A stretch of 32,000 nt of DNA from Edaphobacter aggregans (GTDB taxonomy: Bacteria; Acidobacteriota; Terriglobia; Terriglobales; Acidobacteriaceae), in contig NZ_RSDW01000001.1 of assembly GCF_003945235.1 (NCBI RefSeq), positions 3,810,001 through 3,842,000 on the forward strand, given 5' to 3'. The notes below the pieces were generated by a model. It was not told where the DNA came from. It saw nothing but the letters and a program-made list of their open reading frames with translations, and did not search any database. Numbering within the stretch: position 1 is the first letter of the stretch; every line of letters starts with the position of its first letter. Position numbers and translations under genes: made by a program. Shown one piece after another: positions 2,966 through 24,108 of the stretch.

Positions 2966-2978
2966 AACGCCTCGTGTG

Positions 2979-3020: not shown

Positions 3021-4144
3021 AAATTTCTGGAATCTCTCTGTCTGAGTTACACCGCCTGCCACGATATCGTATTTGAGTCTTCGTCGTTTAAACGGAATGC
3101 AATCCCGAAGTCAGCAATAAGCCGGTCAGACCAGATGTAGAACTATAGATATAGGGTGCTTTTACAAACAACGGGTCCGCAGTATGGTGAGGGCTGGTCC
3201 CGAAAGTAGTACCTCCGCTAACGGTGGGTGGCGGTTCAAAATCCAGCAAGAACAGGGCCCGATCTTAGAGAAATGTTGATCCGCCGCGCGATCGAAGATC
3301 GGTGCCGCAGCAGACTCAAGCGAGATCAATCGCTGATCAGCAAGCGGACGTATGGTTTCGAAGCTAGAGCTCTCGAAGAGCGCGATAATTGGGGTCACAC
3401 CCAACAAACTGGCTCGTATTCTCTGGACCTTATTTCCAGCGGGATTACCGCACGCCATTCAGTTGTGTTTGCCTAAAAAAACGGCCTGAAAAACGCCAAT
3501 GCTTGGAAAGTCCTTCCGCGCCGAACGGACTTAGATCCCCAATGCTGGACTGTTAAATCCGCCGAGGCAACGCGTATTTAGGCCATGGGAGTCATGGGTG
3601 TCTACAACTTGTGCGCCAGTGAATACACATGACGTGTCATACCCCGCAACTATTCGGCAAGTCATGATGAGTTGTGACAAAAGGTTTCCCAAAAAAAGTA
3701 TTTAAGACAAACACAGAGCATGGGACTTCATACATGCGCCATCAACACGTCCGTGGAAGCCATATACGTTGGGCTTAATTGGTTCCCACTAGTCGATTTT
3801 TCTCCCGAGCTCCTTTTTGAGATGTTTGCTCGGTGCTTTGCAAGTGACACATGACCGAGAACGGCCTACCGGCCATGAACGCAAGCACCAAAAATCTTCT
3901 AGTCGCTGAACGCGCAGAGGATCCATCGCAGAAGGGCGAATACTAGGTCGTTGTAATAGTCGAAAGGCTAGAAATGTTTGAATTCTTGAAGACTGCGCAA
4001 TACCTTGGTTCTTTTTTTCACCGGTTAGACCTATTCAAAAATGTTAAGAAGATATGGAACCTACGTCTATGCTTCTTCATAAATACCAGGTCTGTTCTAC
4101 TGCAGTCTTCCTTCCAAACCATATCGTGTGTGGAAGCAATTGGA

Positions 4145-4260
4145 ATGCCACGAACATCAGGAAAATCAGAGTCAATATTTAAAGTTTCTAATAGTTCAAA
4201 GATCCACGGTTATTTCTCATTGGCTTTGCTTGCCATAATGTCTTGTGGCATAGCGGGTGC
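4145..4260 (+). other. Predicted Sec signal peptide of the giant protein
   Basis: Basic/polar n-region, hydrophobic core FSLALLAIMSCGIAG, and a small-residue A-G-A site before QTPTT. The cleavage site is predicted by eye only. Confidence 0.6.
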
Positions 4261-7200: not shown

Positions 7201-10200
7201 CGACTACTCGAGCGCGTCGGCGACGGTGCAACTCGTCGTCAATCCAGCCACGGCCTACCTTAACTGGCCCACACCCGCGCCAATCAGTTACGGAACGCCA
7301 CTAAGCTCGACCCAACTTAATGCCAGCGCTGTAACGGCTACGGGCGTAATCCCCGTTCCAATCTCCACCTACTATCGGGTCAGCGCTTTCTTCACTGACG
7401 GAGTCCAGTACCAAGTTGGAGGATTCGACAATAATGGCAACGCGTACTCTGCTAATCAGCTTGGAACGACGATCGCATTCAACGGCATCAACTTTGCACT
7501 TGGGCCGCCAAGCGTTCCGAACTCGATCACGAGCACCACTGTTTTGCTTCCTCAAGGAAACTTTACAACCCTGTCTTTCATCGGAGCGGCTGCCAACAGC
7601 GCACAAACTAACCAGACCTTCACCGTCAACTATACCGATGGCACCTCCACAACCGCGCAGATCAGTCTCAGTAGTTGGACGGCGTCGAGTGGCTTTGCTG
7701 GCGAGACGATCGTTTCAACGACGACCAAAGAAGATACTTCCGGCGGATCTCAAGTAGTAGGCACTTACAACCTGTACGGCTATCAGATTGCTCTCAGTAA
7801 CACAAAAACAGTTAGCAGCATCACCCTTCCGAACAATCTCAATGTCGTCGTTCTGGGCATGGCCCTCAGCACATCATCATCTGCGACAAACCCAATTCCG
7901 GGGACCTACGCTTATACCCCCGCCAGCGGAACGATCCTTAGCTTGGGGACCCATACCCTATCGGTTACGTTTACCCCTACCGACACCAGCCACTACTCCG
8001 TTGCGACCAAAACGGTTTCCATCGTGGTGAACAAAGCTGTCCTAACAGTGACCGCAAATAGTCAAAGCGTGGTATACGGTACGTCACTGGCTCCTTACAC
8101 GTACGCCATCACCGGGTTCGTCAACGGTGATACCCAGACGAGCGCAACGACGGGTACCCCATCGTTGACAACAAACCCCACGACTCCCTCCAACGTAAAT
8201 ACTTACCCAATCACTGTGGCTGCGGGCACGCTCGCCTCCAGTAACTACAGCTTCACCTTTGTTAATGGATCTGTGGTCATTACGCCGGCCACCCTTACAC
8301 TCAACGCCAATAACGCCTCAAGGTTCTATAACACCGCCAACCCCACCTTTACCGGGACCATCTCCGGGGCCGTCAACGGGGACACCTTCACCGAGAGCTT
8401 CTCCACGACCGCCAACACCTCATCAGCTGTAGGCACCTATCCAATTACCCCTGCCGCTTCCGGCACCCACCTCTCCAACTACACGCTGGCGGTCAATCCC
8501 GGTACCTTGACCGTCACCCAGGCGACCCTGACGGTGACGGCAGGCAACGCCAGCCGCGCCTACGGAGCCCCCAACCCCGTGCTCACGGCCTCGGGCGCGG
8601 GAGCGTTGTCGAGCGACAGCTTCACCTACACGGCGACGACGGCGGCAGTGCCGTCTTCTCCGCTGGGAACATACTCGATCGTGCCCGCGGTGACCGGAGC
8701 TAATCTGGGGAACTACAACGTGGTGTATGTGGATGGCACCCTGACGGTGGGCCAGGCGACCCTGACGGTGACGGCAGGCAACGCCAGCCGCGCCTACGGA
8801 GCCCCCAACCCCGTGCTCACGGCCTCGGGCGCGGGAGCGTTGTCGAGCGACAGCTTCACCTACACGGCAACGACGGTGGCAGTGCCGTCTTCTCCGCTGG
8901 GAACATACTCGATCGTGCCTGCGGTGACCGGAGCTAATCTCGGGAACTACAACGTGGTGTATGTGGATGGCACCCTGACGGTGGGCCAGGCGACCCTGAC
9001 GGTGACGGCAGGCAACGCCAGCCGCGCCTACGGAGCCCCCAACCCCGTGCTCACGGCCTCGGGCGCGGGAGCGTTGTCGAGCGACAGCTTCACCTACACG
9101 GCGACGACGGCGGCAGTGCCGTCTTCTCCGCTGGGAACATACTCGATCGTGCCTGCGGTGACCGGGGCTAATCTCGGGAACTACAACGTGGTGTATGTGA
9201 ACGGCACCCTGACGGTGGGCCAGGCGACCCTGACGGTGACGGCAGGCAACGCCAGCCGCGCCTACGGAGCCCCCAACCCCGTGCTCACGGCATCGGGCAG
9301 CGGCGTGCAGAACGGCGACAGCTTCACCTACACGGCGACGACGGCGGCAGTGCCGTCTTCTCCGCTGGGAACATACTCGATCGTGCCCGCGGTGACCGGA
9401 GCTAATCTGGGGAACTACAACGTGGTGTATGTGAACGGCACCCTGACGGTGGGCCAGGCGACCCTGACGGTGACGGCAGGCAACGCCAGCCGTGCCTACG
9501 GAGCCCCCAACCCCGTGCTCACGGCCTCGGGCAGCGGCGTGCAGAACGGCGACAGCTTCACCTACACGGCGACGACGGCGGCAGTGCCGTCTTCTCCGCT
9601 GGGAACATACTCGATCGTGCCTGCGGTGACGGGAGCTAATCTGGCCAACTACAACGTGGTGTATGTGAACGGCACCCTGACGGTGGGCCAGGCGACCCTG
9701 ACGGTGACGGCAGGCAACGCCAGCCGCGCCTACGGAGCCCCCAACCCCGTGCTCACGGCCTCGGGCGCGGGAGCGTTGTCGAGCGACAGCTTCACCTACA
9801 CGGCGACGACGGCGGCAGTGCCGTCTTCTCCGCTGGGAACATACTCGATCGTGCCCGCGGTGACCGGAGCTAATCTGGCCAACTACAACGTGGTGTATGT
9901 GAACGGCACCCTGACGGTGGGCCAGGCGACCCTGACGGTGACGGCAGGCAACGCCAGCCGTGCCTACGGAGCCCCCAACCCCGTGCTCACGGCCTCGGGC
10001 GCGGGAGCGTTGTCGAGCGACAGCTTCACCTACACGGCGACGACGGCGGCAGTGCCGTCTTCTCCGCTGGGAACATACTCGATCGTGCCTGCGGTGACCG
10101 GGGCTAATCTCGGGAACTACAACGTGGTGTATGTGAACGGCACCCTGACGGTGGGCCAGGCGACCCTGACGGTGACGGCAGGCAACGCCAGCCGCGCCTA

Positions 10201-13200
10201 CGGAGCCCCCAACCCCGTGCTCACGGCCTCGGGCGCGGGAGCGTTGTCGAGCGACAGCTTCACCTACACGGCGACGACGGCGGCAGTGCCGTCTTCTCCG
10301 CTGGGAACATACTCGATCGTGCCTGCAGTGACCGGAGCTAATCTCGGGAACTACAACGTGGTGTATGTGGATGGCACCCTGACGGTGGGCCAGGCGACCC
10401 TGACGGTGACGGCAGGCAACGCCAGCCGCGCCTACGGAGCCCCCAACCCCGTGCTCACGGCCTCGGGCGCGGGAGCGTTGTCGAGCGACAGCTTCACCTA
10501 CACGGCGACGACGGCGGCAGTGCCGTCTTCTCCGCTGGGAACATACTCGATCGTGCCTGCGGTGACGGGAGCTAATCTGGCCAACTACAACGTGGTGTAT
10601 GTGGATGGCACCCTGACGGTGGGCCAGGCGACCCTGACGGTGACGGCAGGCAACGCCAGCCGCGCCTACGGAGCCCCCAACCCCGTGCTCACGGCCTCGG
10701 GCGCGGGAGCGTTGTCGAGCGACAGCTTCACCTACACGGCGACGACGGCGGCAGTGCCGTCTTCTCCGCTGGGAACATACTCGATCGTGCCCGCGGTGAC
10801 CGGAGCTAATCTGGGGAACTACAACGTGGTGTATGTGAACGGCACCCTGACGGTGGGCCAGGCGACCCTGACGGTGACGGCAGGCAACGCCAGCCGTGCC
10901 TACGGAGCCCCCAACCCCGTGCTCACGGCCTCGGGCAGCGGCGTGCAGAACGGCGACAGCTTCACCTACACGGCGACGACGGCGGCAGTGCCGTCTTCTC
11001 CGCTGGGAACATACTCGATCGTGCCTGCGGTGACGGGAGCTAATCTGGCCAACTACAACGTGGTGTATGTGAACGGCACCCTGACGGTGGGCCAGGCGAC
11101 CCTGACGGTGACGGCAGGCAACGCCAGCCGCGCCTACGGAGCCCCCAACCCCGTGCTCACGGCCTCGGGCAGCGGCGTGCAGAACGGCGACAGCTTCACC
11201 TACACGGCGACGACGGCGGCAGTGCCGTCTTCTCCGCTGGGAACATACTCGATCGTGCCTGCAGTGACCGGGGCTAATCTCGGGAACTACAACGTGGTGT
11301 ATGTGGATGGCACCCTGACGGTCGGCCAGGCGACCCTGACGGTGACGGCAGGCAACGCCAGCCGTGCCTACGGAGCCCCCAACCCCGTGCTCACGGCCTC
11401 GGGCGCGGGAGCGTTGTCGAGCGACAGCTTCACCTACACGGCGACGACGGCGGCAGTGCCGTCTTCTCCGCTGGGAACATACTCGATCGTGCCCGCGGTG
11501 ACCGGGGCTAATCTCGGGAACTACAACGTGGTGTATGTGGATGGCACCCTGACGGTCGGCCAGGCGACCCTGACGGTGACGTCAGGCAACGCCAGCCGTG
11601 CCTACGGAGCCCCCAACCCCGTGCTCACGGCCTCGGGCAGCGGCGTGCAGAACGGCGACAGCTTCACCTACACGGCGACGACGGCGGCAGTGCCGTCTTC
11701 TCCGCTGGGAACATACTCGATCGTGCCTGCAGTGACCGGGGCTAATCTGGGGAACTACAACGTGGTGTATGTGGATGGCACCCTGACGGTCGGCCAGGCG
11801 ACCCTGACGGTGACGGCAGGCAACGCCAGCCGTGCCTACGGAGCCCCCAACCCCGTGCTCACGGCCTCGGGCGCGGGAGCGTTGTCGAGCGACAGCTTCA
11901 CCTACACGGCGACGACGGCGGCAGTGCCGTCTTCTCCGCTGGGAACATACTCGATCGTGCCTGCGGTGACGGGAGCTAATCTGGCCAACTACAACGTGGT
12001 GTATGTGAACGGCACCCTGACGGTGGGCCAGGCGACCCTGACGGTGACGGCAGGCAACGCCAGCCGCGCCTACGGAGCCCCCAACCCCGTGCTCACGGCC
12101 TCGGGCGCGGGAGCGTTGTCGAGCGACAGCTTCACCTACACGGCGACGACGGCGGCAGTGCCGTCTTCTCCGCTGGGAACATACTCGATCGTGCCTGCGG
12201 TGACGGGAGCTAATCTGGCCAACTACAACGTGGTGTATGTGAACGGCACCCTGACGGTGGGCCAGGCGACCCTGACGGTGACGGCAGGCAACGCCAGCCG
12301 TGCCTACGGAGCCCCCAACCCCGTGCTCACGGCATCGGGCAGCGGCGTGCAGAACGGCGACAGCTTCACCTACACGGCAACGACGGCGGCAGTGCCGTCT
12401 TCTCCGCTGGGAACATACTCGATCGTGCCTGCAGTGACCGGGGCTAATCTTGGGAACTACAACGTGGTGTATGTGGATGGCACCCTGACGGTCGGCCAGG
12501 CGACCCTGACGGTGACGGCAGGCAACGCCAGCCGCGCCTACGGAGCCCCCAACCCCGTGCTCACGGCCTCGGGCAGCGGCGTGCAGAACGGCGACAGCTT
12601 CACCTACACGGCAACGACGGTGGCAGTGCCGTCTTCTCCGCTGGGAACATACTCGATCGTGCCCGCGGTGACCGGAGCTAATCTGGGGAACTACAACGTG
12701 GTGTATGTGGATGGCACCCTGACGGTGGGCCAGGCGACCCTGACGGTGACGGCAGGCAACGCCAGCCGCGCCTACGGAGCCCCCAACCCCGTGCTCACGG
12801 CCTCGGGCGCGGGAGCGTTGTCGAGCGACAGCTTCACCTACACGGCGACGACGGCGGCAGTGCCGTCTTCTCCGCTGGGAACATACTCGATCGTGCCTGC
12901 AGTGACCGGGGCTAATCTCGGGAACTACAACGTGGTGTATGTGGATGGCACCCTGACGGTGGGCCAGGCGACCCTGACGGTGACGGCAGGCAACGCCAGC
13001 CGTGCCTACGGAGCCCCCAACCCCGTGCTCACGGCCTCGGGCGCGGGAGCGTTGTCGAGCGACAGCTTCACCTACACGGCGACGACGGCGGCAGTGCCGT
13101 CTTCTCCGCTGGGAACATACTCGATCGTGCCTGCGGTGACCGGAGCTAATCTGGCCAACTACAACGTGGTGTATGTGAACGGCACCCTGACGGTGGGCCA

Positions 13201-16200: not shown

Positions 16201-19200
16201 CTACAACGTGGTGTATGTGGATGGCACCCTGACGGTCGGCCAGGCGACCCTGACGGTGACGGCAGGCAACGCCAGCCGTGCCTACGGAGCCCCCAACCCC
16301 GTGCTCACGGCCTCGGGCGCGGGAGCGTTGTCGAGCGACAGCTTCACCTACACGGCGACGACGGCGGCAGTGCCGTCTTCTCCGCTGGGAACGTACTCGA
16401 TCGTGCCCGCGGTGACCGGAGCTAATCTGGCCAACTACAACGTGGTGTATGTGAACGGCACCCTGACGGTGGGCCAGGCGACCCTGACGGTGACGGCAGG
16501 CAACGCCAGCCGTGCCTACGGAGCCCCCAACCCCGTGCTCACGGCCTCGGGCGCGGGAGCGTTGTCGAGCGACAGCTTCACCTACACGGCGACGACGGCG
16601 GCAGTGCCGTCTTCTCCGCTGGGAACATACTCGATCGTGCCTGCGGTGACCGGGGCTAATCTCGGGAACTACAACGTGGTGTATGTGAACGGCACCCTGA
16701 CGGTGGGCCAGGCGACCCTGACGGTGACGGCAGGCAACGCCAGCCGCGCCTACGGAGCCCCCAACCCCGTGCTCACGGCCTCGGGCAGCGGCGTGCAGAA
16801 CGGCGACAGCTTCACCTACACGGCGACGACGGCGGCAGTGCCGTCTTCTCCGCTGGGAACATACTCGATCGTGCCTGCGGTGACGGGAGCTAATCTGGCC
16901 AACTACAACGTGGTGTATGTGGATGGCACCCTGACGGTGGGCCAGGCGACCCTGACGGTGACGGCAGGCAACGCCAGCCGTGCCTACGGAGCCCCCAACC
17001 CCGTGCTCACGGCCTCGGGCGCGGGAGCGTTGTCGAGCGACAGCTTCACCTACACGGCAACGACGGCGGCAGTGCCGTCTTCTCCGCTGGGAACGTACTC
17101 GATCGTGCCTGCGGTGACCGGAGCTAATCTGGCCAACTACAACGTGGTGTATGTGAACGGCACCCTGACGGTGGGCCAGGCGACCCTGACGGTGACGGCA
17201 GGCAACGCCAGCCGTGCCTACGGAGCCCCCAACCCCGTGCTCACGGCCTCGGGCGCGGGAGCGTTGTCGAGCGACAGCTTCACCTACACGGCGACGACGG
17301 CGGCAGTGCCGTCTTCTCCGCTGGGAACATACTCGATCGTGCCCGCGGTGACGGGAGCTAATCTGGGGAACTACAACGTGGTGTATGTGAACGGCACCCT
17401 GACGGTGGGCCAGGCGACCCTGACGGTGACGGCAGGCAACGCCAGCCGTGCCTACGGAGCCCCCAACCCCGTGCTCACGGCCTCGGGCGCGGGAGCGTTG
17501 TCGAGCGACAGCTTCACCTACACGGCGACGACGGCGGCAGTGCCGTCTTCTCCGCTGGGAACATACTCGATCGTGCCTGCGGTGACGGGAGCTAATCTGG
17601 CCAACTACAACGTGGTGTATGTGGATGGCACCCTGACGGTGGGCCAGGCGACCCTGACGGTGACGGCAGGCAACGCCAGCCGCGCCTACGGAGCCCCCAA
17701 CCCCGTGCTCACGGCCTCGGGCGCGGGAGCGTTGTCGAGCGACAGCTTCACCTACACGGCAACGACGGTGGCAGTGCCGTCTTCTCCGCTGGGAACATAC
17801 TCGATCGTGCCTGCGGTGACGGGAGCTAATCTGGCCAACTACAACGTGGTGTATGTGGATGGCACCCTGACGGTGGGCCAGGCGACCCTGACGGTGACGG
17901 CAGGCAACGCCAGCCGTGCCTACGGAGCCCCCAACCCCGTGCTCACGGCCTCGGGCGCGGGAGCGTTGTCGAGCGACAGCTTCACCTACACGGCAACGAC
18001 GGCGGCAGTGCCGTCTTCTCCGCTGGGAACGTACTCGATCGTGCCCGCGGTGACCGGAGCTAATCTGGCCAACTACAACGTGGTGTATGTGAACGGCACC
18101 CTGACGGTGGGCCAGGCGACCCTGACGGTGACGGCAGGCAACGCCAGCCGTGCCTACGGAGCCCCCAACCCCGTGCTCACGGCCTCGGGCGCGGGAGCGT
18201 TGTCGAGCGACAGCTTCACCTACACGGCAACGACGGCGGCAGTGCCGTCTTCTCCGCTGGGAACGTACTCGATCGTGCCCGCGGTGACCGGAGCTAATCT
18301 GGCCAACTACAACGTGGTGTATGTGAACGGCACCCTGACGGTGGGCCAGGCGACCCTGACGGTGACGGCAGGCAACGCCAGCCGTGCCTACGGAGCCCCC
18401 AACCCCGTGCTCACGGCCTCGGGCAGCGGCGTGCAGAACGGCGACAGCTTCACCTACACGGCGACGACGGCGGCAGTGCCGTCTTCTCCGCTGGGAACAT
18501 ACTCGATCGTGCCCGCGGTGACCGGAGCTAATCTGGGGAACTACAACGTGGTGTATGTGGATGGCACCCTGACGGTGGGCCAGGCGACCCTGACGGTGAC
18601 GGCAGGCAACGCCAGCCGCGCCTACGGAGCCCCCAACCCCGTGCTCACGGCCTCGGGCGCGGGAGCGTTGTCGAGCGACAGCTTCACCTACACGGCGACG
18701 ACGGCGGCAGTGCCGTCTTCTCCGCTGGGAACATACTCGATCGTGCCTGCAGTGACCGGGGCTAATCTCGGGAACTACAACGTGGTGTATGTGGATGGCA
18801 CCCTGACGGTCGGCCAGGCGACCCTGACGGTGACGGCAGGCAACGCCAGCCGTGCCTACGGAGCCCCCAACCCCGTGCTCACGGCCTCGGGCGCGGGAGC
18901 GTTGTCGAGCGACAGCTTCACCTACACGGCGACGACGGCGGCAGTGCCGTCTTCTCCGCTGGGAACATACTCGATCGTGCCTGCAGTGACCGGGGCTAAT
19001 CTCGGGAACTACAACGTGGTGTATGTGGATGGCACCCTGACGGTCGGCCAGGCGACCCTGACGGTGACGGCAGGCAACGCCAGCCGTGCCTACGGAGCCC
19101 CCAACCCCGTGCTCACGGCCTCGGGCGCGGGAGCGTTGTCGAGCGACAGCTTCACCTACACGGCGACGACGGCGGCAGTGCCGTCTTCTCCGCTGGGAAC

Positions 19201-22200
19201 ATACTCGATCGTGCCCGCGGTGACCGGAGCTAATCTGGCCAACTACAACGTGGTGTATGTGAACGGCACCCTGACGGTGGGCCAGGCGACCCTGACGGTG
19301 ACGGCAGGCAACGCCAGCCGTGCCTACGGAGCCCCCAACCCCGTGCTCACGGCCTCGGGCGCGGGAGCGTTGTCGAGCGACAGCTTCACCTACACGGCGA
19401 CGACGGCGGCAGTGCCGTCTTCTCCGCTGGGAACATACTCGATCGTGCCTGCGGTGACCGGGGCTAATCTCGGGAACTACAACGTGGTGTATGTGAACGG
19501 CACCCTGACGGTGGGCCAGGCGACCCTGACGGTGACGGCAGGCAACGCCAGCCGCGCCTACGGAGCCCCCAACCCCGTGCTCACGGCATCGGGCAGCGGC
19601 GTGCAGAACGGCGACAGCTTCACCTACACGGCAACGACGGCGGCAGTGCCGTCTTCTCCGCTGGGAACATACTCGATCGTGCCTGCAGTGACCGGGGCTA
19701 ATCTCGGGAACTACAACGTGGTGTATGTGGATGGCACCCTGACGGTCGGCCAGGCGACCCTGACGGTGACGGCAGGCAACGCCAGCCGTGCCTACGGAGC
19801 CCCCAACCCCGTGCTCACGGCCTCGGGCAGCGGCGTGCAGAACGGCGACAGCTTCACCTACACGGCGACGACGGCGGCAGTGCCGTCTTCTCCGCTGGGA
19901 ACATACTCGATCGTGCCTGCGGTGACCGGGGCTAATCTCGGGAACTACAACGTGGTGTATGTGAACGGCACCCTGACGGTGGGCCAGGCGACCCTGACGG
20001 TGACGGCAGGCAACGCCAGCCGCGCCTACGGAGCCCCCAACCCCGTGCTCACGGCCTCGGGCGCGGGAGCGTTGTCGAGCGACAGCTTCACCTACACGGC
20101 GACGACGGCGGCAGTGCCGTCTTCTCCGCTGGGAACGTACTCGATCGTGCCTGCAGTGACCGGGGCTAATCTTGGGAACTACAACGTGGTGTATGTGGAT
20201 GGCACCCTGACGGTCGGCCAGGCGACCCTGACGGTGACGGCAGGCAACGCCAGCCGTGCCTACGGAGCCCCCAACCCCGTGCTCACGGCCTCGGGCAGCG
20301 GCGTGCAGAACGGCGACAGCTTCACCTACACGGCGACGACGGCGGCAGTGCCGTCTTCTCCGCTGGGAACATACTCGATCGTGCCTGCGGTGACCGGGGC
20401 TAATCTCGGGAACTACAACGTGGTGTATGTGAACGGCACCCTGACGGTGGGCCAGGCGACCCTGACGGTGACGGCAGGCAACGCCAGCCGCGCCTACGGA
20501 GCCCCCAACCCCGTGCTCACGGCCTCGGGCGCGGGAGCGTTGTCGAGCGACAGCTTCACCTACACGGCGACGACGGCGGCAGTGCCGTCTTCTCCGCTGG
20601 GAACATACTCGATCGTGCCTGCAGTGACCGGGGCTAATCTCGGGAACTACAACGTGGTGTATGTGGATGGCACCCTGACGGTCGGCCAGGCGACCCTGAC
20701 GGTGACGGCAGGCAACGCCAGCCGTGCCTACGGAGCCCCCAACCCCGTGCTCACGGCCTCGGGCAGCGGCGTGCAGAACGGCGACAGCTTCACCTACACG
20801 GCAACGACGGCGGCAGTGCCGTCTTCTCCGCTGGGAACATACTCGATCGTGCCTGGGGTGACGGGAGCTAATCTGGCCAACTACAACGTGGTGTATGTGG
20901 ATGGCACCCTGACGGTCGGCCAGGCGACCCTGACGGTGACGGCAGGCAACGCCAGCCGTGCCTACGGAGCCCCCAACCCCGTGCTCACGGCCTCGGGCGC
21001 GGGAGCGTTGTCGAGCGACAGCTTCACCTACACGGCGACGACGGCGGCAGTGCCGTCTTCTCCGCTGGGAACATACTCGATCGTGCCTGCGGTGACCGGG
21101 GCTAATCTCGGGAACTACAACGTGGTGTATGTGAACGGCACCCTGACGGTGGGCCAGGCGACCCTGACGGTGACGGCAGGCAACGCCAGCCGCGCCTACG
21201 GAGCCCCCAACCCCGTGCTCACGGCCTCGGGCGCGGGAGCGTTGTCGAGCGACAGCTTCACCTACACGGCGACGACGGCGGCAGTGCCGTCTTCTCCGCT
21301 GGGAACGTACTCGATCGTGCCTGCAGTGACCGGGGCTAATCTTGGGAACTACAACGTGGTGTATGTGGATGGCACCCTGACGGTCGGCCAGGCGACCCTG
21401 ACGGTGACGGCGGGCAACGCCAACCGCGTCTACGGAGCCCCCAACCCTGTGCTGACGGCATCGGGCAGCGGCGTGCAGAACAGCGACAGCTTCACCTATA
21501 CGGCAACGACCACGGCAGTGCAGTCTTCTCCGGTGGGAACATACTCGATCGTGCCTGCAGTGACGGGAGCGAACCTGGCCAACTACAACGTGGTGTATGT
21601 GGATGGCACCCTGACGGTAGGCCAGGCGACCCTGACAGTGACGGCAGGCAACGCCAGCCGCGCCTACGGAGCCCCGAACCCTGTGCTCTCGGCATCGGGC
21701 AGCGGCGTGCAGAACGGCGACAGCTTCACCTACACGGCAACGACCACGGCAGTCCCGTCTTCTCCGGTGGGAACGTACTCGATCGTGCCCGCAGTAACCG
21801 GAGCTAATCTGGCGAACTACAACGTGGTCTATGTGGATGGCACCCTGACGGTAGGCCAGGCGACCCTGACGGTGACGTCAGGCAACGCCAGCCGCGCCTA
21901 CGGAGCCCCCAACCCTGTGCTGACGGCATCGGGCAGCGGCGTGCAGAACAGCGACTCCTTCACCTACACGGCAACGACCACGGCAGTGCCGTCTTCCGCG
22001 ATAGGGAACTACTCGATCGTGCCTGCAGTGACGGGGGCTAATCTGGCCAACTACAACGTGGTCTATGTGGATGGCACCCTGACGGTAGGTCAGGCGACTC
22101 TGACGGTGACGGCAGGCAACGCCAGCCGCGCCTACGGGGCGGCCAACCCTGTGCTCACGGCATCGGGCAGCGGCGTGCAGAACAGCGACAGCTTCACCTA

Positions 22201-23860
22201 TACGGCAACGACCGTGGCAGTCCCATCTTCTCCGGTGGGAACGTACTCGATCGTGCCCGCAGTAACCGGAGCTAATCTGGCGAACTACAACGTGGTGTAT
22301 GTGGACGGCACCCTGACGGTAGGCCAGGCAACCCCGATTATCACTTGGGCGCCACCAGCGACGATTAGCTACGACACTCCTTTATCTGCCACTCAGCTGG
22401 ATGCAACTGCTTCGGTGCCTGGTACTTTCACCTATACACCTACCGCAGGCACGATACTTTCGGCAGGTTTGAATCAACTCTCGGTCAGCTTCATTCCCAC
22501 TGACGCAGTCAATTACACAACGCAAACAGCTACCGTTAACCTCACGGTCACTCCTTCCGCCCCCGTCATCAATTGGGCTGATCCGGCATCGATTATCTAC
22601 GGTACGGCACTCAGCTCTACCCAGCTTGACGCGACCGCCGTTCAGCCCAACGGTGTTGGGGCTGTGGCCGGTACCTTCGTCTACAGTCCGGCCGTAGGAA
22701 CTATCCTAAGCACTGGCATCCACCCGATTTCAGTCACCTTCACTCCAACTGATTCCTCCGACTACACCACTCTCATCAAGACGGTGTCTATCAACGTCCT
22801 ACCGGCAACTCTGATTCTTTCTGCGAACGATGCCACTAAAATCTATGGCGCGCCGAACCCATCGTTCACCGGTACCGTCACGGGAGTTCAGAATGGGGAC
22901 GTCTTTACCGAGAGCTTCACAACCTTAGCCTCAATGCTTTCCAACACTGGATCGTATCCGATCGTTCCGAGCGTCTCAGGGCTCAACCTGCCCTTTTACC
23001 TTCAGACGGTGAACAATGGCACACTTACCATCACAAAGGCATCGGTTACCTCGACTCTTACGCTAAGCCCCGTCAGCGTTGCCTATGGCCTCCCAGTAAA
23101 TATGACGTTAGCTTTGCAATCGACGACCAGCGGTACGCCGACAGGAACTGTCAGCTTCTTTGACAATGGCAATCTGATCGGGACTTCACCTGTCACATCT
23201 GGTGTCGCGACCTTCTCCACAACGTCGCTTCTGGTTGGAAACCATGTCATCACCACCCTCTATAGCGGCGACATGAACTTCAACGCGCAAACCGTCGCAG
23301 CCACTTCCGGGTCTAACACGGTTGCCATCACTCCGCTCGACTTCAGCTTCCAACTGACGAGCTTGCCGACCCTCCACGGAGTCTATGGAACTTCCGGCGA
23401 GTACACCTTCCACTTAGCGCCAATAGGCGGTAGCTATCCCGGAACAGTACAATTCACGATCGACGGAAGTCGCGGACCGATCTTGGCCACCTATACGTTC
23501 TCGGAAAATTCTCTCCCCATGCACGGAGGACCTGCAGACATCACACTAAACGTGGCTACCCGTAAGCTCGCTGGGATGGAACACCCTGTTGATTTATCCA
23601 GCCGTCTAGGATCTATAGCCCTTAGCCTTTTCCTGATTCCGCTTGCGTCGGCGCGACGTCTCCGCAAATCGGGACGCAAACTGGCTCGAGCCATCAGCAT
23701 GTTCGCCTTACTCTTACTCACACTTGGAGGTATCGCGTCGCTTACCGGATGCGGAAGCGGCTACCGAAGTATCGATAATCCAATTGTGGTGATTGCGACC
23801 AGTAACGGCGTTCAACACACGATTACCATCGACTACCACATCGATGCGTCAGCTCAGTAA
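4145..23860 (+). CDS. Giant secreted multidomain surface/adhesin-like protein (~6,571 aa): signal peptide, Ig-like domains, 7x FG-GAP/VCBS propeller, 2 lectin-like modules, 62 MBG-type domains, C-terminal hydrophobic module
   Basis: A single uninterrupted frame runs 3974..23860. The preferred start is ATG 4145, with GGAAG at 4132..4136 (8-nt spacer). It is followed by a Sec-type signal peptide, MPRTSGKSESIFKVSNSSKIHGYFSLALLAIMSCGIAGA|QT. The 57 codons upstream of 4145 are AT-rich, Phe/Lys/Leu-rich and carry no signal. Domain calls rest on motifs read from the translation (see the sub-features). Confidence 0.9.
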   Translation: MPRTSGKSESIFKVSNSSKIHGYFSLALLAIMSCGIAGAQTPTTVSLSVTPVTASYGSVVQMTATVTAGATHPSAGTVTFSDTFNTVTHVLGTIQVQSANGKAILQRELGGIGNHSITATFNAPKTYQSSSSTAQIVAITGQYPTTASLLQTGGATGNWSLTATITGTGSLSLSPGGNVSLLDTSNGGYLLGMAGLGTGTIAQQTVAGAGSPIGVGTNPESVAVGDFNGDGFIDIAVLSKSNNNNVSILLGDGTGAFTELGTKLNAGNNPVAVVTGDFDGDGNLDLAVTNSTSNAISILLGNGDGTFRNRATFTVTTPYALAIGDFNRDGIPDLAVANSGNQVNIMLGNGSGGFTLSSGSPFTVGNGVASIVVGDFNRDGNLDFATANQTDNSISVMQGDGTGTVFTSITGASLSLGAGTTPLSIVTADFDGDNKLDLAVAESGKNRIGVLRGNGDGTFGLQATYATGSTPYALAVGDFNADGNYDIGVANSGATTASILLGNGNGTFQSQTTPSVGTNPRSVAAADFDGDGNVDLAVANYGSNNVSILLNQITDTATASLTMISIPGGGNHLLDATYAGDTNFSTSTSNKVSLAASPITTSTLLSTSSNSPTYGQQVVLTATLSTSMVGTLTPAGVDTVTFKDGTTTIGTSTLSSGVATLNVSNLSVGSHTITAVFGGDSNFQTSTSAPVSIVVGTATPVITWANPAPIAYGTLLSTTQLNAVASVNGITVPGTYTYTPAAGTLLATGSPHTLSVTFKPTASGNYTTATASVSLTVTQATPIISWATPSPIAFGTPLSNVQLNATVTSTTVVPLSSYYNVSGIITDGSTVTNGGFDANGNDYSANQLGTSISWNGVTYTFGPVNANDAVSNITINLPQGHFSSLNMLGALVNNATASNTFTVTYTDGSTKNFTQSLSDWVYPMNYAGESNLKCDIARDQSGGAQDTHSTCVYGYQFALDSTKIVQSVTLPNTRNIVMLAMGLTSPPIAGTMVYSPAADTVPAVGTDTLSVTFTPTDTVDYSSASATVQLVVNPATAYLNWPTPAPISYGTPLSSTQLNASAVTATGVIPVPISTYYRVSAFFTDGVQYQVGGFDNNGNAYSANQLGTTIAFNGINFALGPPSVPNSITSTTVLLPQGNFTTLSFIGAAANSAQTNQTFTVNYTDGTSTTAQISLSSWTASSGFAGETIVSTTTKEDTSGGSQVVGTYNLYGYQIALSNTKTVSSITLPNNLNVVVLGMALSTSSSATNPIPGTYAYTPASGTILSLGTHTLSVTFTPTDTSHYSVATKTVSIVVNKAVLTVTANSQSVVYGTSLAPYTYAITGFVNGDTQTSATTGTPSLTTNPTTPSNVNTYPITVAAGTLASSNYSFTFVNGSVVITPATLTLNANNASRFYNTANPTFTGTISGAVNGDTFTESFSTTANTSSAVGTYPITPAASGTHLSNYTLAVNPGTLTVTQATLTVTAGNASRAYGAPNPVLTASGAGALSSDSFTYTATTAAVPSSPLGTYSIVPAVTGANLGNYNVVYVDGTLTVGQATLTVTAGNASRAYGAPNPVLTASGAGALSSDSFTYTATTVAVPSSPLGTYSIVPAVTGANLGNYNVVYVDGTLTVGQATLTVTAGNASRAYGAPNPVLTASGAGALSSDSFTYTATTAAVPSSPLGTYSIVPAVTGANLGNYNVVYVNGTLTVGQATLTVTAGNASRAYGAPNPVLTASGSGVQNGDSFTYTATTAAVPSSPLGTYSIVPAVTGANLGNYNVVYVNGTLTVGQATLTVTAGNASRAYGAPNPVLTASGSGVQNGDSFTYTATTAAVPSSPLGTYSIVPAVTGANLANYNVVYVNGTLTVGQATLTVTAGNASRAYGAPNPVLTASGAGALSSDSFTYTATTAAVPSSPLGTYSIVPAVTGANLANYNVVYVNGTLTVGQATLTVTAGNASRAYGAPNPVLTASGAGALSSDSFTYTATTAAVPSSPLGTYSIVPAVTGANLGNYNVVYVNGTLTVGQATLTVTAGNASRAYGAPNPVLTASGAGALSSDSFTYTATTAAVPSSPLGTYSIVPAVTGANLGNYNVVYVDGTLTVGQATLTVTAGNASRAYGAPNPVLTASGAGALSSDSFTYTATTAAVPSSPLGTYSIVPAVTGANLANYNVVYVDGTLTVGQATLTVTAGNASRAYGAPNPVLTASGAGALSSDSFTYTATTAAVPSSPLGTYSIVPAVTGANLGNYNVVYVNGTLTVGQATLTVTAGNASRAYGAPNPVLTASGSGVQNGDSFTYTATTAAVPSSPLGTYSIVPAVTGANLANYNVVYVNGTLTVGQATLTVTAGNASRAYGAPNPVLTASGSGVQNGDSFTYTATTAAVPSSPLGTYSIVPAVTGANLGNYNVVYVDGTLTVGQATLTVTAGNASRAYGAPNPVLTASGAGALSSDSFTYTATTAAVPSSPLGTYSIVPAVTGANLGNYNVVYVDGTLTVGQATLTVTSGNASRAYGAPNPVLTASGSGVQNGDSFTYTATTAAVPSSPLGTYSIVPAVTGANLGNYNVVYVDGTLTVGQATLTVTAGNASRAYGAPNPVLTASGAGALSSDSFTYTATTAAVPSSPLGTYSIVPAVTGANLANYNVVYVNGTLTVGQATLTVTAGNASRAYGAPNPVLTASGAGALSSDSFTYTATTAAVPSSPLGTYSIVPAVTGANLANYNVVYVNGTLTVGQATLTVTAGNASRAYGAPNPVLTASGSGVQNGDSFTYTATTAAVPSSPLGTYSIVPAVTGANLGNYNVVYVDGTLTVGQATLTVTAGNASRAYGAPNPVLTASGSGVQNGDSFTYTATTVAVPSSPLGTYSIVPAVTGANLGNYNVVYVDGTLTVGQATLTVTAGNASRAYGAPNPVLTASGAGALSSDSFTYTATTAAVPSSPLGTYSIVPAVTGANLGNYNVVYVDGTLTVGQATLTVTAGNASRAYGAPNPVLTASGAGALSSDSFTYTATTAAVPSSPLGTYSIVPAVTGANLANYNVVYVNGTLTVGQATLTVTAGNASRAYGAPNPVLTASGSGVQNGDSFTYTATTAAVPSSPLGTYSIVPAVTGANLANYNVVYVDGTLTVGQATLTVTAGNASRAYGAPNPVLTASGAGALSSDSFTYTATTAAVPSSPLGTYSIVPAVTGANLGNYNVVYVDGTLTVGQATLTVTAGNASRAYGAPNPVLTASGAGALSSDSFTYTATTAAVPSSPLGTYSIVPAVTGANLGNYNVVYVDGTLTVGQATLTVTSGNASRAYGAPNPVLTASGAGALSSDSFTYTATTAAVPSSPLGTYSIVPAVTGANLGNYNVVYVNGTLTVGQATLTVTAGNASRAYGAPNPVLTASGSGVQNGDSFTYTATTAAVPSSPLGTYSIVPAVTGANLANYNVVYVNGTLTVGQATLTVTAGNASRAYGAPNPVLTASGAGALSSDSFTYTATTAAVPSSPLGTYSIVPAVTGANLANYNVVYVNGTLTVGQATLTVTAGNASRAYGAPNPVLTASGAGALSSDSFTYTATTAAVPSSPLGTYSIVPAVTGANLANYNVVYVNGTLTVGQATLTVTAGNASRAYGAPNPVLTASGSGVQNGDSFTYTATTAAVPSSPLGTYSIVPAVTGANLGNYNVVYVDGTLTVGQATLTVTAGNASRAYGAPNPVLTASGSGVQNGDSFTYTATTAAVPSSPLGTYSIVPAVTGANLGNYNVVYVDGTLTVGQATLTVTAGNASRAYGAPNPVLTASGAGALSSDSFTYTATTAAVPSSPLGTYSIVPAVTGANLGNYNVVYVDGTLTVGQATLTVTAGNASRAYGAPNPVLTASGAGALSSDSFTYTATTAAVPSSPLGTYSIVPAVTGANLANYNVVYVNGTLTVGQATLTVTAGNASRAYGAPNPVLTASGAGALSSDSFTYTATTAAVPSSPLGTYSIVPAVTGANLGNYNVVYVNGTLTVGQATLTVTAGNASRAYGAPNPVLTASGAGALSSDSFTYTATTAAVPSSPLGTYSIVPAVTGANLGNYNVVYVDGTLTVGQATLTVTAGNASRAYGAPNPVLTASGAGALSSDSFTYTATTAAVPSSPLGTYSIVPAVTGANLANYNVVYVNGTLTVGQATLTVTAGNASRAYGAPNPVLTASGAGALSSDSFTYTATTAAVPSSPLGTYSIVPAVTGANLGNYNVVYVNGTLTVGQATLTVTAGNASRAYGAPNPVLTASGSGVQNGDSFTYTATTAAVPSSPLGTYSIVPAVTGANLANYNVVYVDGTLTVGQATLTVTAGNASRAYGAPNPVLTASGAGALSSDSFTYTATTAAVPSSPLGTYSIVPAVTGANLANYNVVYVNGTLTVGQATLTVTAGNASRAYGAPNPVLTASGAGALSSDSFTYTATTAAVPSSPLGTYSIVPAVTGANLGNYNVVYVNGTLTVGQATLTVTAGNASRAYGAPNPVLTASGAGALSSDSFTYTATTAAVPSSPLGTYSIVPAVTGANLANYNVVYVDGTLTVGQATLTVTAGNASRAYGAPNPVLTASGAGALSSDSFTYTATTVAVPSSPLGTYSIVPAVTGANLANYNVVYVDGTLTVGQATLTVTAGNASRAYGAPNPVLTASGAGALSSDSFTYTATTAAVPSSPLGTYSIVPAVTGANLANYNVVYVNGTLTVGQATLTVTAGNASRAYGAPNPVLTASGAGALSSDSFTYTATTAAVPSSPLGTYSIVPAVTGANLANYNVVYVNGTLTVGQATLTVTAGNASRAYGAPNPVLTASGSGVQNGDSFTYTATTAAVPSSPLGTYSIVPAVTGANLGNYNVVYVDGTLTVGQATLTVTAGNASRAYGAPNPVLTASGAGALSSDSFTYTATTAAVPSSPLGTYSIVPAVTGANLGNYNVVYVDGTLTVGQATLTVTAGNASRAYGAPNPVLTASGAGALSSDSFTYTATTAAVPSSPLGTYSIVPAVTGANLGNYNVVYVDGTLTVGQATLTVTAGNASRAYGAPNPVLTASGAGALSSDSFTYTATTAAVPSSPLGTYSIVPAVTGANLANYNVVYVNGTLTVGQATLTVTAGNASRAYGAPNPVLTASGAGALSSDSFTYTATTAAVPSSPLGTYSIVPAVTGANLGNYNVVYVNGTLTVGQATLTVTAGNASRAYGAPNPVLTASGSGVQNGDSFTYTATTAAVPSSPLGTYSIVPAVTGANLGNYNVVYVDGTLTVGQATLTVTAGNASRAYGAPNPVLTASGSGVQNGDSFTYTATTAAVPSSPLGTYSIVPAVTGANLGNYNVVYVNGTLTVGQATLTVTAGNASRAYGAPNPVLTASGAGALSSDSFTYTATTAAVPSSPLGTYSIVPAVTGANLGNYNVVYVDGTLTVGQATLTVTAGNASRAYGAPNPVLTASGSGVQNGDSFTYTATTAAVPSSPLGTYSIVPAVTGANLGNYNVVYVNGTLTVGQATLTVTAGNASRAYGAPNPVLTASGAGALSSDSFTYTATTAAVPSSPLGTYSIVPAVTGANLGNYNVVYVDGTLTVGQATLTVTAGNASRAYGAPNPVLTASGSGVQNGDSFTYTATTAAVPSSPLGTYSIVPGVTGANLANYNVVYVDGTLTVGQATLTVTAGNASRAYGAPNPVLTASGAGALSSDSFTYTATTAAVPSSPLGTYSIVPAVTGANLGNYNVVYVNGTLTVGQATLTVTAGNASRAYGAPNPVLTASGAGALSSDSFTYTATTAAVPSSPLGTYSIVPAVTGANLGNYNVVYVDGTLTVGQATLTVTAGNANRVYGAPNPVLTASGSGVQNSDSFTYTATTTAVQSSPVGTYSIVPAVTGANLANYNVVYVDGTLTVGQATLTVTAGNASRAYGAPNPVLSASGSGVQNGDSFTYTATTTAVPSSPVGTYSIVPAVTGANLANYNVVYVDGTLTVGQATLTVTSGNASRAYGAPNPVLTASGSGVQNSDSFTYTATTTAVPSSAIGNYSIVPAVTGANLANYNVVYVDGTLTVGQATLTVTAGNASRAYGAANPVLTASGSGVQNSDSFTYTATTVAVPSSPVGTYSIVPAVTGANLANYNVVYVDGTLTVGQATPIITWAPPATISYDTPLSATQLDATASVPGTFTYTPTAGTILSAGLNQLSVSFIPTDAVNYTTQTATVNLTVTPSAPVINWADPASIIYGTALSSTQLDATAVQPNGVGAVAGTFVYSPAVGTILSTGIHPISVTFTPTDSSDYTTLIKTVSINVLPATLILSANDATKIYGAPNPSFTGTVTGVQNGDVFTESFTTLASMLSNTGSYPIVPSVSGLNLPFYLQTVNNGTLTITKASVTSTLTLSPVSVAYGLPVNMTLALQSTTSGTPTGTVSFFDNGNLIGTSPVTSGVATFSTTSLLVGNHVITTLYSGDMNFNAQTVAATSGSNTVAITPLDFSFQLTSLPTLHGVYGTSGEYTFHLAPIGGSYPGTVQFTIDGSRGPILATYTFSENSLPMHGGPADITLNVATRKLAGMEHPVDLSSRLGSIALSLFLIPLASARRLRKSGRKLARAISMFALLLLTLGGIASLTGCGSGYRSIDNPIVVIATSNGVQHTITIDYHIDASAQ
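4760..5800 (+). other. Seven FG-GAP/VCBS-type repeats (predicted 7-bladed integrin-alpha-like beta-propeller)
   Basis: Seven spaced copies of the motif [VI]xxGDF[ND]xDGxxD[LI]A[VT]: VAVGDFNGDGFIDIAV, VVTGDFDGDGNLDLAV, LAIGDFNRDGIPDLAV, IVVGDFNRDGNLDFAT, IVTADFDGDNKLDLAV, LAVGDFNADGNYDIGV, VAAADFDGDGNVDLAV. Most copies are followed by a short S[IV]-containing segment and a G[ND]G[DNST]G[TAG]F motif (e.g. NNVSILLGDGTGAF, NAISILLGNGDGTF, ASILLGNGNGTF). Confidence 0.8.
6578..7106 (+). other. Lectin-like / putative carbohydrate-binding module, copy 1, nested inside an Ig-like domain
   Basis: A ~175-aa insert (VVPLSSYYNVSGIITDG...GGFDANGNDYSANQLGTSISWNGVTYTFGP...INLPQGHFSSLNMLGALVNN...FTVTYTDGSTKNFTQSLSDW...YGYQFALDSTKIVQSVTLPNTRNIVMLAMGL). 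It sits between the ...QLNATV half and the GTMVYSPA...LSVTFTPTD half of an ITW...YGTPLS...QLNA-type Ig-like domain. The function is guessed from resemblance to a module I recall at the termini of secreted glycoside hydrolases. Confidence 0.45.
7343..7895 (+). other. Lectin-like / putative carbohydrate-binding module, copy 2, nested inside the next Ig-like domain
   Basis: A diverged paralogue of copy 1 with the same motif order: GVIPVPISTYYRVSAFFTDG...GGFDNNGNAYSANQLGTTIAFNGINFALGP...VLLPQGNFTTLSFIGAAANS...FTVNYTDGTSTTAQISLSSW...YGYQIALSNTKTVSSITLPNNLNVVVLGMAL. It is again flanked by split halves of an Ig-like domain. Confidence 0.45.
8036..8518 (+). other. Two diverged MBG-type domains preceding the tandem array
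   Basis: Domain one is LTVTANSQSVVYGTSLAPYTYAITGFVNGDTQ...NTYPITVAAGTLASSNYSFTFVNGSVVITPA. Domain two is LTLNANNASRFYNTANPTFTGTISGAVNGDTFTESF...VGTYPITPAASGTHLSNYTLAVNPGTLTVT. Both follow the MBG (YGX-type) pattern xYGxxNP...G.VNGD...GxYxI...NY...GTLT[IV]. Confidence 0.65.
8519..21388 (+). repeat. Coding tandem repeat: 55 near-identical units of exactly 234 bp (78 aa, MBG-type domain)
   Basis: Consensus unit: QATLTVTAGNASRAYGAPNPVLTASG[AGALSS/SGVQNG]DSFTYTATTAAVPSSPLGTYSIVPAVTGANL[G/A]NYNVVYV[D/N]GTLTVG. Unit starts that I checked (8519, 8753, 11561, 13901, 21389) all fall on 8519+234n. No indels were seen. Units differ only at about a dozen recurrent dimorphic nucleotides plus one 18-nt cassette. 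Confidence 0.95.
21389..22324 (+). repeat. Four more-diverged 234-bp units (units 56-59) at the 3' edge of the same array
   Basis: The period and phase are unchanged (8519+59x234 = 22325, the first codon of QATPIITW). These units carry private substitutions (NRVYGAPNP, LSASG, TTAVQSSPVG, SSAIGNY, GAANP, VQNSDS) and many synonymous changes. All four have the SGVQN-type cassette. Confidence 0.9.
22805..23040 (+). other. Isolated diverged MBG-type domain downstream of the array
   Basis: ATLILSANDATKIYGAPNPSFTGTVTGVQNGDVFTESFTTLASMLSNTGSYPIVPSVSGLNLPFYLQTVNNGTLTITKA. It is separated from the array by two ITW...YxTxLSxTQLDA-type Ig-like domains (22325..22800). Confidence 0.6.
23333..23857 (+). 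other. C-terminal module: split beta-domain interrupted by a hydrophobic helix, a basic cluster and a lipoprotein-signal-like segment
   Basis: Order of elements: DFSFQLTS...ITLNVATRKLAGMEHPVDLSSR; hydrophobic LGSIALSLFLIPLASA (23606..23653); basic RRLRKSGRKLAR (23654..23689); hydrophobic AISMFALLLLTLGGIAS plus lipobox-like LTGC (Cys codon 23750..23752); then GSGYRSIDNPIVVIATSNGVQHTITIDYHIDASAQ and the stop. Confidence 0.6.
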
Positions 23861-23871
23861 TAGGCACAGAT

Positions 23872-23901
23872 GTGGCGAGGGCGGCAGGGGCCCCTCGCCA
23901 C
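23872..23901 (+). terminator. Possible terminator hairpin after the giant gene (no U-tract)
   Basis: 10-bp GC-rich stem gtggcgaggg (23872..23881) / ccctcgccac (23892..23901) with a 10-nt loop, 12 nt after the TAA. No T-run follows, so intrinsic-terminator function is uncertain. Confidence 0.3.
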
Positions 23902-24108
23902 GGCACTCCAAGACAGCATCCAGCAGGAAGTAAGTTTAGAAGCTTGTTTGCGTCGATAGCCTACTGCGGACACATCAGCGGCACAAGGTAAAATTCCCGA
24001 TGCTGATCTAGAGAAAGTCCGTATTCATAGTGAGATCAATAAGAAGCTTGCGACAGGCACTTGGCGCGCAGGTCTCAGTGAGGAACGGTGGTAGGGGAGC
24101 GCACACCA

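Follow-up and report, generated by a model that had tools for sequence, protein, structure and literature searches.

A 59-copy MBG_2 repeat array as the probable stalk of a giant Periscope-type protein in Acidobacteriaceae

A single gene in a 32,000-nucleotide stretch of the Edaphobacter aggregans genome (contig NZ_RSDW01000001.1, positions 3,810,001 to 3,842,000; hereafter the window, in whose own coordinates all positions are given) carries 59 head-to-tail copies of a 234-bp unit, each encoding one MBG_2 domain. We propose, with a probability of about 0.72, that this array is the rod-like stalk of a giant single-chain fibrillar adhesin of the Periscope type, found in the Acidobacteriaceae. 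The protein would be exported through the Sec pathway by an N-terminal signal peptide and held in the envelope by a C-terminal 'lipo-invert' tail, in which a hydrophobic hairpin is followed by an invariant lipobox-like cysteine. Its N-terminal head, predicted to consist of an FG-GAP beta-propeller and two jelly-roll modules projecting from split Ig-like domains, would then sit at the far end of 62 MBG_2 domains and about ten other Ig-like domains, on a stalk of roughly 0.2–0.25 µm that could span a thick coat of exopolysaccharide and bring the head to soil surfaces, to polymers or to other cells. The units would be kept nearly identical in DNA by unequal recombination and gene conversion inside the array, and the same process would alter copy number, and hence fibre length, between strains.

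A 234-bp array in one intact gene

The open reading frame (ORF) of the putative surface protein spans 3974..23860 on the + strand, as do all the features of the gene described below, and its translation of 6,628 amino acids has no internal stop. Tandem Repeats Finder places a 234-bp array at 8518–22334, with 59.0 copies, 95% matches, 0% indels and a score of 23851. The units begin at 8519+234n, fill 8519–22324 in frame 0 of the ORF and contain no stops. With 13,806 bp the array occupies 43% of the window, and its 4,602 amino acids make up 69% of the protein. A previous reading made from the letters alone (the sequence-only reading) had described 59 exact-period units without indels or stops, covering about 70% of the protein and 43% of the window, and both the repeat search and the translation bear this out.

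The array comprises a core of 55 units (8519..21388; 234 bp or 78 amino acids each) and four units at its 3′ edge (units 55–58, 21389..22324). The core, which had been taken for 55 near-identical copies, is indeed highly homogeneous, but it is a mosaic of two variants rather than a single type: cassette A (AGALSSD) is found in 38 units and cassette B (SGVQNGD) in 17 (21 overall), and further G/A and D/N sites combine freely with either cassette. At the nucleotide level 41 distinct units can be told apart, at the protein level 18. Mean nucleotide identity is 97.5% within a variant versus 92.6% between variants, and about 95% across the array. The four edge units are all B-like and 85.5–88% identical to the consensus. 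Graded divergence, which the sequence-only reading had seen at both edges, is therefore confined to the 3′ side; the 5′ boundary is abrupt, as nucleotide identity to the consensus drops from 99.6% in unit 0 to 52% in unit −1.

A search against Pfam confirmed the suspected MBG-type identity of the repeat, since one 78-residue unit matched MBG_2 (PF18676) over the full profile (1–72 of 72) with E=4e-16 and 59.8 bits, against a gathering cut-off of 25 bits. Scanning the whole stalk in two halves gave 31+31 MBG_2 domains, which agrees with the 62-domain stalk, making up most of one intact gene product, that had been predicted. Three of these domains lie outside the array. Two diverged MBG_2 domains precede it (8033..8518; Pfam E=1.5e-28), one of an 84-residue subtype and one of a 78-residue subtype, and a lone diverged MBG_2 domain follows at 22802–23035. 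These flanking domains share 44–50% amino-acid identity with the array units (47–50% for unit −1). They are thus diverged, as had been noted, but belong to a distinct MBG_2 subtype, and two Ig-like domains stand between the downstream one and the array.

Relatives carry tens of copies of the same unit

The best relatives of the head (55–80% amino-acid identity) are encoded by Acidobacteriaceae metagenome-assembled genomes (MAGs), Edaphobacter and Tunturiibacter. We found four sibling 234-bp arrays in nanopore metagenome assemblies that are error-prone, all four loci being broken by frameshifts, so that the following counts are approximate. In assembly ERZ25039543, contig_54986 has 48 copies and contig_58305 at least 73.3, running off the locus, from which a total of about 77 is inferred; in assembly ERZ26871208, contig_76864 has about 78 copies and contig_140217 has 93.0. 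Between contig_140217 and contig_58305 the 3.4-kb flanks are 99.6% identical, yet the copy numbers are 93.0 and at least 73.3, and the flanks of the contig with 48 copies are 95% identical to those of the siblings with which it was compared.

The consensus unit of the window shares 71–75% of its nucleotides and 67–73% of its amino acids with the consensus units of the sibling arrays, the array units share 72–76% of their amino acids with those arrays, and the non-repetitive flanks are 64–68% identical to those of the siblings. Because the unit is closer to the sibling arrays than to the MBG_2 domains that flank it in its own gene, the array is old, with each lineage homogenising its own copy. 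This is concerted evolution, as had been claimed, and the contrast between about 95% identity within the array and 71–75% between sibling consensuses is in line with it. Within the core, all four gametes are present at 225 of 351 pairs of biallelic sites and identity between units does not fall with distance along the array, which together point to pervasive exchange between units.

The module that is amplified turns over between species. The closest genome in GTDB (L001; 80% amino-acid identity in the head) has a stalk made of other expanded modules, namely a 252-bp unit present 6.9 times, a 489-bp unit present 7 times (98% matches) and a 228-bp unit present at least 15.6 times, and a 240-bp Ig-like unit is expanded in other orthologues.

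Further candidates for comparison were more limited. An exact 24-mer of the A-variant cassette had no match in the metagenome contigs of the Joint Genome Institute, in which a family-wide 23-mer found only six short stretches, one contig among them containing 234-bp repeats. The RecX protein of the window likewise had no exact match in public assemblies, and neither look-up revealed a second genome of the window's own species. Two Tunturiibacter entries (P0121 and P0424) were set aside as evidence for copy-number variation because they differ only in the called ORF start: the entry of 2,090 residues is the whole entry of 1,521 residues with an N-terminal extension.

Separately, we observed that the head region of one sibling locus (L081, 1000–7238) is only 64–67% identical to that of contig_140217 (stitched from L082 and L080), and that the C-terminal regions and downstream genes of the two are 95% identical, which suggests head swapping across the repeat array or paralogy between sibling genes.

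The repeats are predicted to form a beta-rod

Modelling of two or three consecutive units had been proposed, and an AlphaFold2 model of three units (predicted local distance difference test, pLDDT, 97.5; predicted template-modelling score, pTM, 0.81) is all-beta, with one compact beta domain per unit. Adjacent units are joined by nearly continuous strands, the linker being a one-residue break (E73–78, then E80–86). When the model was compared with the PDB by Foldseek, only generic tandem beta-sandwich rods were returned, with template-modelling scores (TM-scores) of at most 0.43; the closest solved folds were those of cadherins, SraP, the S-layer protein Sap and the neck of GhpA. Sequence and profile searches of the PDB with MBG_2 units found no relative. 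Ig-like domains typically rise 3.5–4 nm each, from which we infer that a stalk of 62 domains would be about 0.2–0.25 µm long. The earlier analogy with the extender stalks of giant adhesins fits both this predicted beta-rod and the layout of head, stalk and anchor.

A multi-domain head and a membrane-anchoring tail

At the N terminus we read a putative Sec-type signal peptide from the sequence (4199..4261), which has a hydrophobic h-region and an A-x-A site and would be cleaved between KIHGYFSLALLAIMSCGIAGA and QT. It ends in LALLAIMSCGIAGA before the QT, and the AGAQT motif is conserved in the N termini of orthologues. A more distant orthologue conserves an alternative start codon, ATG at 4145 (M58).

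The first part of the head (4265..6229) consists of a Big_3_5 domain, about eight FG-GAP/VCBS repeats that form an FG-GAP beta-propeller at roughly 4796–5800, and a second Big_3_5 domain; the corresponding Pfam matches are FG-GAP_3 (E=1.2e-58, eight stretches), FG-GAP (E=4e-32) and Big_3_5 (E=1.8e-29). The second part (6230..8032) contains one complete CFAP65/ASH-like Ig domain followed by an internal duplication, that is, two copies of that same Ig-like domain (~6476–7249 and 7241–8032), each split by a jelly-roll insert of about 190 residues. AlphaFold2 models the insert as a jelly roll with a pLDDT of 92.2. Its best Foldseek matches are AziU2 and AziU3 (E=1e-9; TM-scores of 0.76–0.79, normalised by the target), a profile of the insert matches AziU2/Azi28 by sequence (E=5e-5), and weak Foldseek matches (E of 0.007–0.06) include CBM35 and the carbohydrate-binding module (CBM) of AlgX. 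We consider the inserts and the propeller to be a candidate ligand-binding head.

Two side observations concern these inserts (6476–8032). Their homologues AziU2 and AziU3 belong to azinomycin biosynthesis, and we know of no other surface proteins that contain this family. In RTX adhesins, ligand-binding domains are arranged in a comparable way, in 'split extenders' (10.1101/2025.09.30.679566).

Downstream of the array, the membrane-proximal region (22325..23329; Pfam) holds two CFAP65-like Ig domains (22325–22801), the lone MBG_2 domain and a Big_3_5 domain (23036–23329), and is followed by a last Ig-like domain with the putative C-terminal anchoring module (23330..23857), for which a hydrophobicity scan, conservation and the NCBIfam model NF058595 are the evidence. 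Within the last 108 residues, a strand (ADITLNVATRKLA) leads into a hydrophobic helix (predicted transmembrane segment TM1, 23606–23653), a basic loop (RRLRKSGRKLAR; 23654–23689) and a second hydrophobic helix (TM2, 23690–23743), after which come an invariant lipobox-like [TS]GCG and about 35 residues resembling two beta strands. In the window the lipobox-like motif is LTGC (23741–23752, with the cysteine at 23750–23752) and the two-strand tail covers 23753–23857. The module is conserved in the sibling loci and in about 30 protein clusters, always with GCG.

NF058595 ('invert_tail') is described in NCBIfam as a 'lipo-invert putative C-terminal anchoring domain'. It is matched at E<=0.01 by 27 of 28 family tails, and a sibling tail reaches 38.6 bits, above the curated cut-off of 37. 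The tail of the window aligns through its C-terminal 100 residues along the whole model (3–108 of 113) with 24.0 bits and E=3.7e-5, falling to 17.8 bits with a longer query; a score of 17.8–24 bits against a cut-off of 37, for a domain whose function is itself only 'putative', is the difference to be kept in mind. On alignment and conservation it appears to be a divergent relative of this domain. Our literature search for the lipo-invert domain NF058595 found no paper.

Known C-terminal sorting signals were considered and rejected, given that 35 further residues extend past the hydrophobic segments and that no curated model matched: NF058595 was the only match when the tail was compared at E<=10 with the NCBIfam models, which cover LPXTG, PEP-CTERM, the C-terminal domain of the type IX secretion system (T9SS), GlyGly-CTERM and MYXO-CTERM, and the LPXTG motif is absent from the protein sequence. 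We also observed that the [TS]GCG of the tail (23534–23857) follows the lipoprotein lipobox pattern in a signal-peptide topology. The two tail strands may complete the preceding Ig-like domain, a 'split Ig domain' reading for which the strand pattern is the only basis; when that last Ig-like domain was spliced without the hydrophobic hairpin, Pfam gave no family across the junction.

Comparison with known giant adhesins

The giant protein belongs to a known class, that of Periscope Proteins and fibrillar adhesins, and is very long for it. The Pfam family MBG_2 was established in the Periscope Protein study from repeats of high mutual identity, CdrA being the example, and the number of MBG_2 domains is strain-variable in CdrA (Whelan et al. 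2021, PNAS, PMC8201768). CdrA of strain PAO1 has 15 MBG_2 repeats and is about 70 nm long (PMC9704523, PMC7616799). The Periscope set covered pathogens of NCTC3000, in which the highest repeat number reported is about 46 (PMC8201768; review PMC9704523), and up to 73 stalk domains have been documented in fibrillar and RTX adhesins (PMC8286594; 10.1101/2025.09.30.679566).

Several expectations of the sequence-only reading give way here. It had held that MBG-type domains occur in small numbers per protein, yet the Pfam family itself derives from Periscope repeats, and when we compared one unit with 1.84 billion representative proteins, the best 150 of 7,167 matches included proteins with up to 37 MBG_2 stretches; they occur in Flavobacterium, Cytophagales, Sphingomonas and other taxa, where the annotation reads 'MBG domain-containing protein'. 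Nor is such a stalk undescribed, because MBG_2 stalks of CdrA and Periscope type are published and related loci carry 48–93 copies; and 62 domains, although at the high end, are exceeded by the sibling with 93.

In common with Periscope Proteins, the protein is a single chain with a stalk of tandem folded domains that are highly identical in DNA (59 domain-sized units, about 95% mean nucleotide identity and no indels) and a predicted head that would lie distal to the anchor; copy number probably also differs among its close relatives, and assemblies from short reads get the gene wrong. It differs in having 59 near-identical repeats (62 MBG_2 domains in all, and 93 copies in a sibling) and in coming from a soil acidobacterium; the variation reported for Periscope Proteins is between strains, whereas the variation seen here is among sibling lineages outside the window's own species. 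The architecture is compatible with a surface location in which the head lies distal to the anchor.

Pseudomonas aeruginosa CdrA, a TpsA protein, likewise has an MBG_2 stalk with strain-variable repeats that projects an adhesive tip. By contrast, the window protein has a putative Sec signal, an FG-GAP and jelly-roll head, a 'lipo-invert' tail and four times as many MBG_2 domains, with neither two-partner secretion (TPS) or haemagglutinin domains nor a TpsB neighbour. We rejected two-partner secretion of the CdrA/FHA kind because Pfam finds neither Haemagg_act nor Fil_haemagg in the head, stalk or tail and there is no adjacent TpsB (POTRA and ShlB).

RTX adhesins of type I secretion systems (T1SS), such as LapA, SiiE and MpIBP, are similarly thousands of residues long, with 5–73 Ig-like extenders, of which those in the interior are near-identical and those at the ends dissimilar, while CBM-like ligand-binding domains project from split extenders (10.1101/2025.09.30.679566). 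Their extender regions also turn over between homologues, and short reads mis-assemble their genes. Unlike them, the window protein lacks an RTX beta-roll, a T1SS signal, a retention module at the N terminus and adjacent genes for an ATP-binding cassette (ABC) protein, a membrane fusion protein (MFP) and TolC; its polarity is opposite (N-terminal head, C-terminal anchor), and its extender is MBG_2, not BIg. This class was rejected because neither Pfam nor NCBIfam gave a HemolysinCabind/RTX match no T1SS genes are present in the window, and the protein has a putative N-terminal Sec-type signal instead.

To the same family belong the 'MBG domain-containing protein' entries of Tunturiibacter empetritectus (WP_433984142.1, WP_433977824.1) and other Acidobacteriaceae orthologues, which share an MBG_2 unit (61% identical), the membrane-proximal Big_3_5 region and a C-terminal tail ending in TGCGSGYFDRTYPIVVTANSNGIQHTVSVDYHINQSPQ. 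Their MBG_2 domains, however, number only about 16 and are more diverged, and the annotation treats these proteins as fragments truncated at the N terminus.

Few bacteria are more abundant in soil than acidobacteria, and to our knowledge next to nothing is known of their attachment to particles, to roots or to one another. The locus and its siblings indicate that acidobacteria encode single-polypeptide fibres with 48–93 near-identical MBG_2 domains, potentially 0.2–0.35 µm long. The 59 near-identical repeats of the window exceed the roughly 46 published for repeats of one kind in Periscope Proteins, and the 93 of a sibling exceed both that number and 73. The length of the stalk stands out, in a phylum that has received little study, but the underlying principle is familiar, and public assemblies already include relatives with higher copy numbers. 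Such genes could serve as a system for stalk-length tuning, for how a giant protein exported by Sec reaches and stays on the surface of a diderm, and for conversion-driven GC enrichment in repeats.

Weighing the stalk against other explanations

The array could be real and its count of 59 nonetheless a product of assembly, an unresolved repeat having been expanded, collapsed or arbitrarily threaded, and the sequence-only reading had warned of exactly this kind of error. Repeats of this family do break or scramble most assemblies: most database orthologues are 1,400–2,200 residues long and end within the repeats or in out-of-frame sequence, as do nearly all orthologues from short reads, and C-terminal family fragments lie on contigs of roughly 1 kb, from which we conclude that the arrays break short-read assemblies; the nanopore siblings, for their part, are full of frameshifts. 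In the window, however, 13.8 kb run in frame with zero indels or frameshifts, and the array is no loop of one unit, as it contains 41 distinct units and no higher-order period, its longest exact repeat is 608 bp and any two of its 2-kb registers are at most 98.9% identical. Because the registers differ and exact repeats do not exceed 608 bp, the array could be tiled uniquely by accurate long reads but not by short reads. As independent assemblies of relatives have 48–93 copies, tens of copies are normal for the family, and we consider an artefactual count unlikely. It follows from the broken orthologues that such genes are nearly invisible in short-read genomes and MAGs, where they show up as truncated fragments.

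A different function is also conceivable, in which the protein is released or self-associates into a matrix, a sheath or an S-layer-like scaffold, so that the repeats are bulk material and set no length. CdrA is, according to the literature cited above, also a released matrix protein, the tandem beta-sandwich matches of the model include the S-layer proteins Sap, SbsB and EA1, and no outer-membrane translocator is evident in the window. The TM-scores of those S-layer proteins are low (about 0.3), though, a predicted membrane-anchoring module is conserved across the whole family, and the opposite end of the protein carries a distinct head that is not repetitive and contains the propeller and the jelly-roll modules; we regard a scaffold as decidedly unlikely. 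Least credible to us, and very improbable, is that the array is a recent neutral or decaying run-away amplification in a gene on its way to becoming a pseudogene, with a stalk length that serves nothing. The very high nucleotide identity of the units does imply recent homogenisation, and some relatives are annotated as fragments only, but those fragments are explained by assembly breaks and sequencing errors, and the ORF is intact across 19.9 kb. The unit subtype is shared with the sibling arrays (72–76% of amino acids, versus 44–50% with the gene's own flanking MBG_2 domains), so that the array is old and maintained; moreover, 15 of the 28 variable columns of the core are at third codon positions, and replacements are limited to a few cassettes while the fold motifs are conserved.

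What we observe is the array in its intact ORF, with its domain identities, conserved tail, mosaic and concerted pattern, and differing copy numbers in relatives; the beta-rod is a prediction. Several points weigh against the proposal of an anchored Periscope-type stalk. The surface location, adhesive function, ligand, outer-membrane route and physical length of the protein are deduced from its architecture, the copy number of 59 comes from a single assembly, and the sibling counts are approximate, coming from error-prone, frameshift-broken nanopore assemblies. An anchor in the form of an inner-membrane hairpin is hard to reconcile with an extracellular rod of 0.2 µm unless the tail is processed. 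The tail of the window scores below the curated NF058595 cut-off (24 versus 37 bits). No TpsB, T1SS, T9SS or autotransporter element was found by Pfam or NCBIfam in the protein or the window, and the window has no homologue of the PF13505 barrel that accompanies five related loci.

Base composition follows homogeneity

GC content at third codon positions (GC3) was compared between the array (8519–22324) and the rest of the gene (4145–8050 and 22325–23857), and with the arrays of three orthologues (L001, 12300–15730; L002, 16676–17890; L006, 14334–19099). The core of the window has a GC content of 67% and a GC3 of 0.83. Across the orthologues, GC3 is 0.56–0.60 in the heads, 0.62–0.73 in arrays with 74–80% matches, 0.80 at 90% and 0.89–0.92 at 98%, and overall GC climbs with array homogeneity in the same way, whatever the type of repeated domain. 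The third-position GC skew of the core is about 0, compared with −0.2 to −0.3 elsewhere in the gene. We tentatively suggest that array GC tracks the strength of homogenisation across the gene family, for any domain type, possibly through GC-biased gene conversion. If that were true, tandem arrays would be within-gene natural experiments that quantify biased conversion in bacteria, and their composition would provide a 'clock' for array turnover.

Neighbouring genes and further observations

Around the giant gene lie an OMP_b-brl_4 barrel gene, set off by a strong terminator, a LolA-like gene in convergent orientation, and genes for a histidine kinase, an S9 peptidase and RecX. A terminator with a 16-bp stem (2978–3013) closes the upstream gene, which suggests that the giant gene is a separate transcription unit. 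We rejected the OMP_b-brl_4 barrel as a dedicated partner, given the intervening terminator and the lack of conservation beside sibling genes, and the downstream LolA-like gene as a link to the lipobox-like tail, as it scores under the Pfam cut-off, is convergent and is absent from the siblings. Five related loci have, 24–83 nucleotides downstream of the giant gene, a small gene for an outer-membrane beta-barrel (PF13505; 184–207 residues; L080, 18367–18990; L083, 18718–19341; L081, 20505 to the end; L091, 10935–11489; L092, 783–1400), and this barrel may be a conserved partner of the giant protein. Neither Rfam (at the gathering threshold) nor a tRNA scan gave a match in the window.

The + strand ORF at 25114–26502 reads as the histidine kinase, with an H-box and a G-box in its translation. 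Two antisense ORFs (25096–25824 and 25867–26691), which have no family matches and are low-complexity and rich in proline, arginine and histidine, are probably spurious. Short tandem repeats at 26573–27428 (GCAACG, 14.7 copies; 18-mers, 2–5 copies; a 17-mer; an 11-mer; AGGGAAC, 4.6 copies) occupy the interval from the histidine kinase ORF to the S9 peptidase ORF and run on past the start of the latter.

The synonymous GC skew flips abruptly at about 23,900–24,100, between the parts 1–24,000 and 24,000–32,000. Left of about 24 kb, the third-position skew of + strand genes is −0.2 to −0.3; to the right, it is +0.61 to +0.86 for genes on the + strand and −0.42 to −0.57 for those on the − strand (each on its own coding strand). 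Since the two strands show opposite signs there, the bias right of about 24 kb is strand-specific, and it is unusually strong. The polarity of the flip is that of a replication origin, which it may mark, with a rearrangement or an assembly junction as the alternative.

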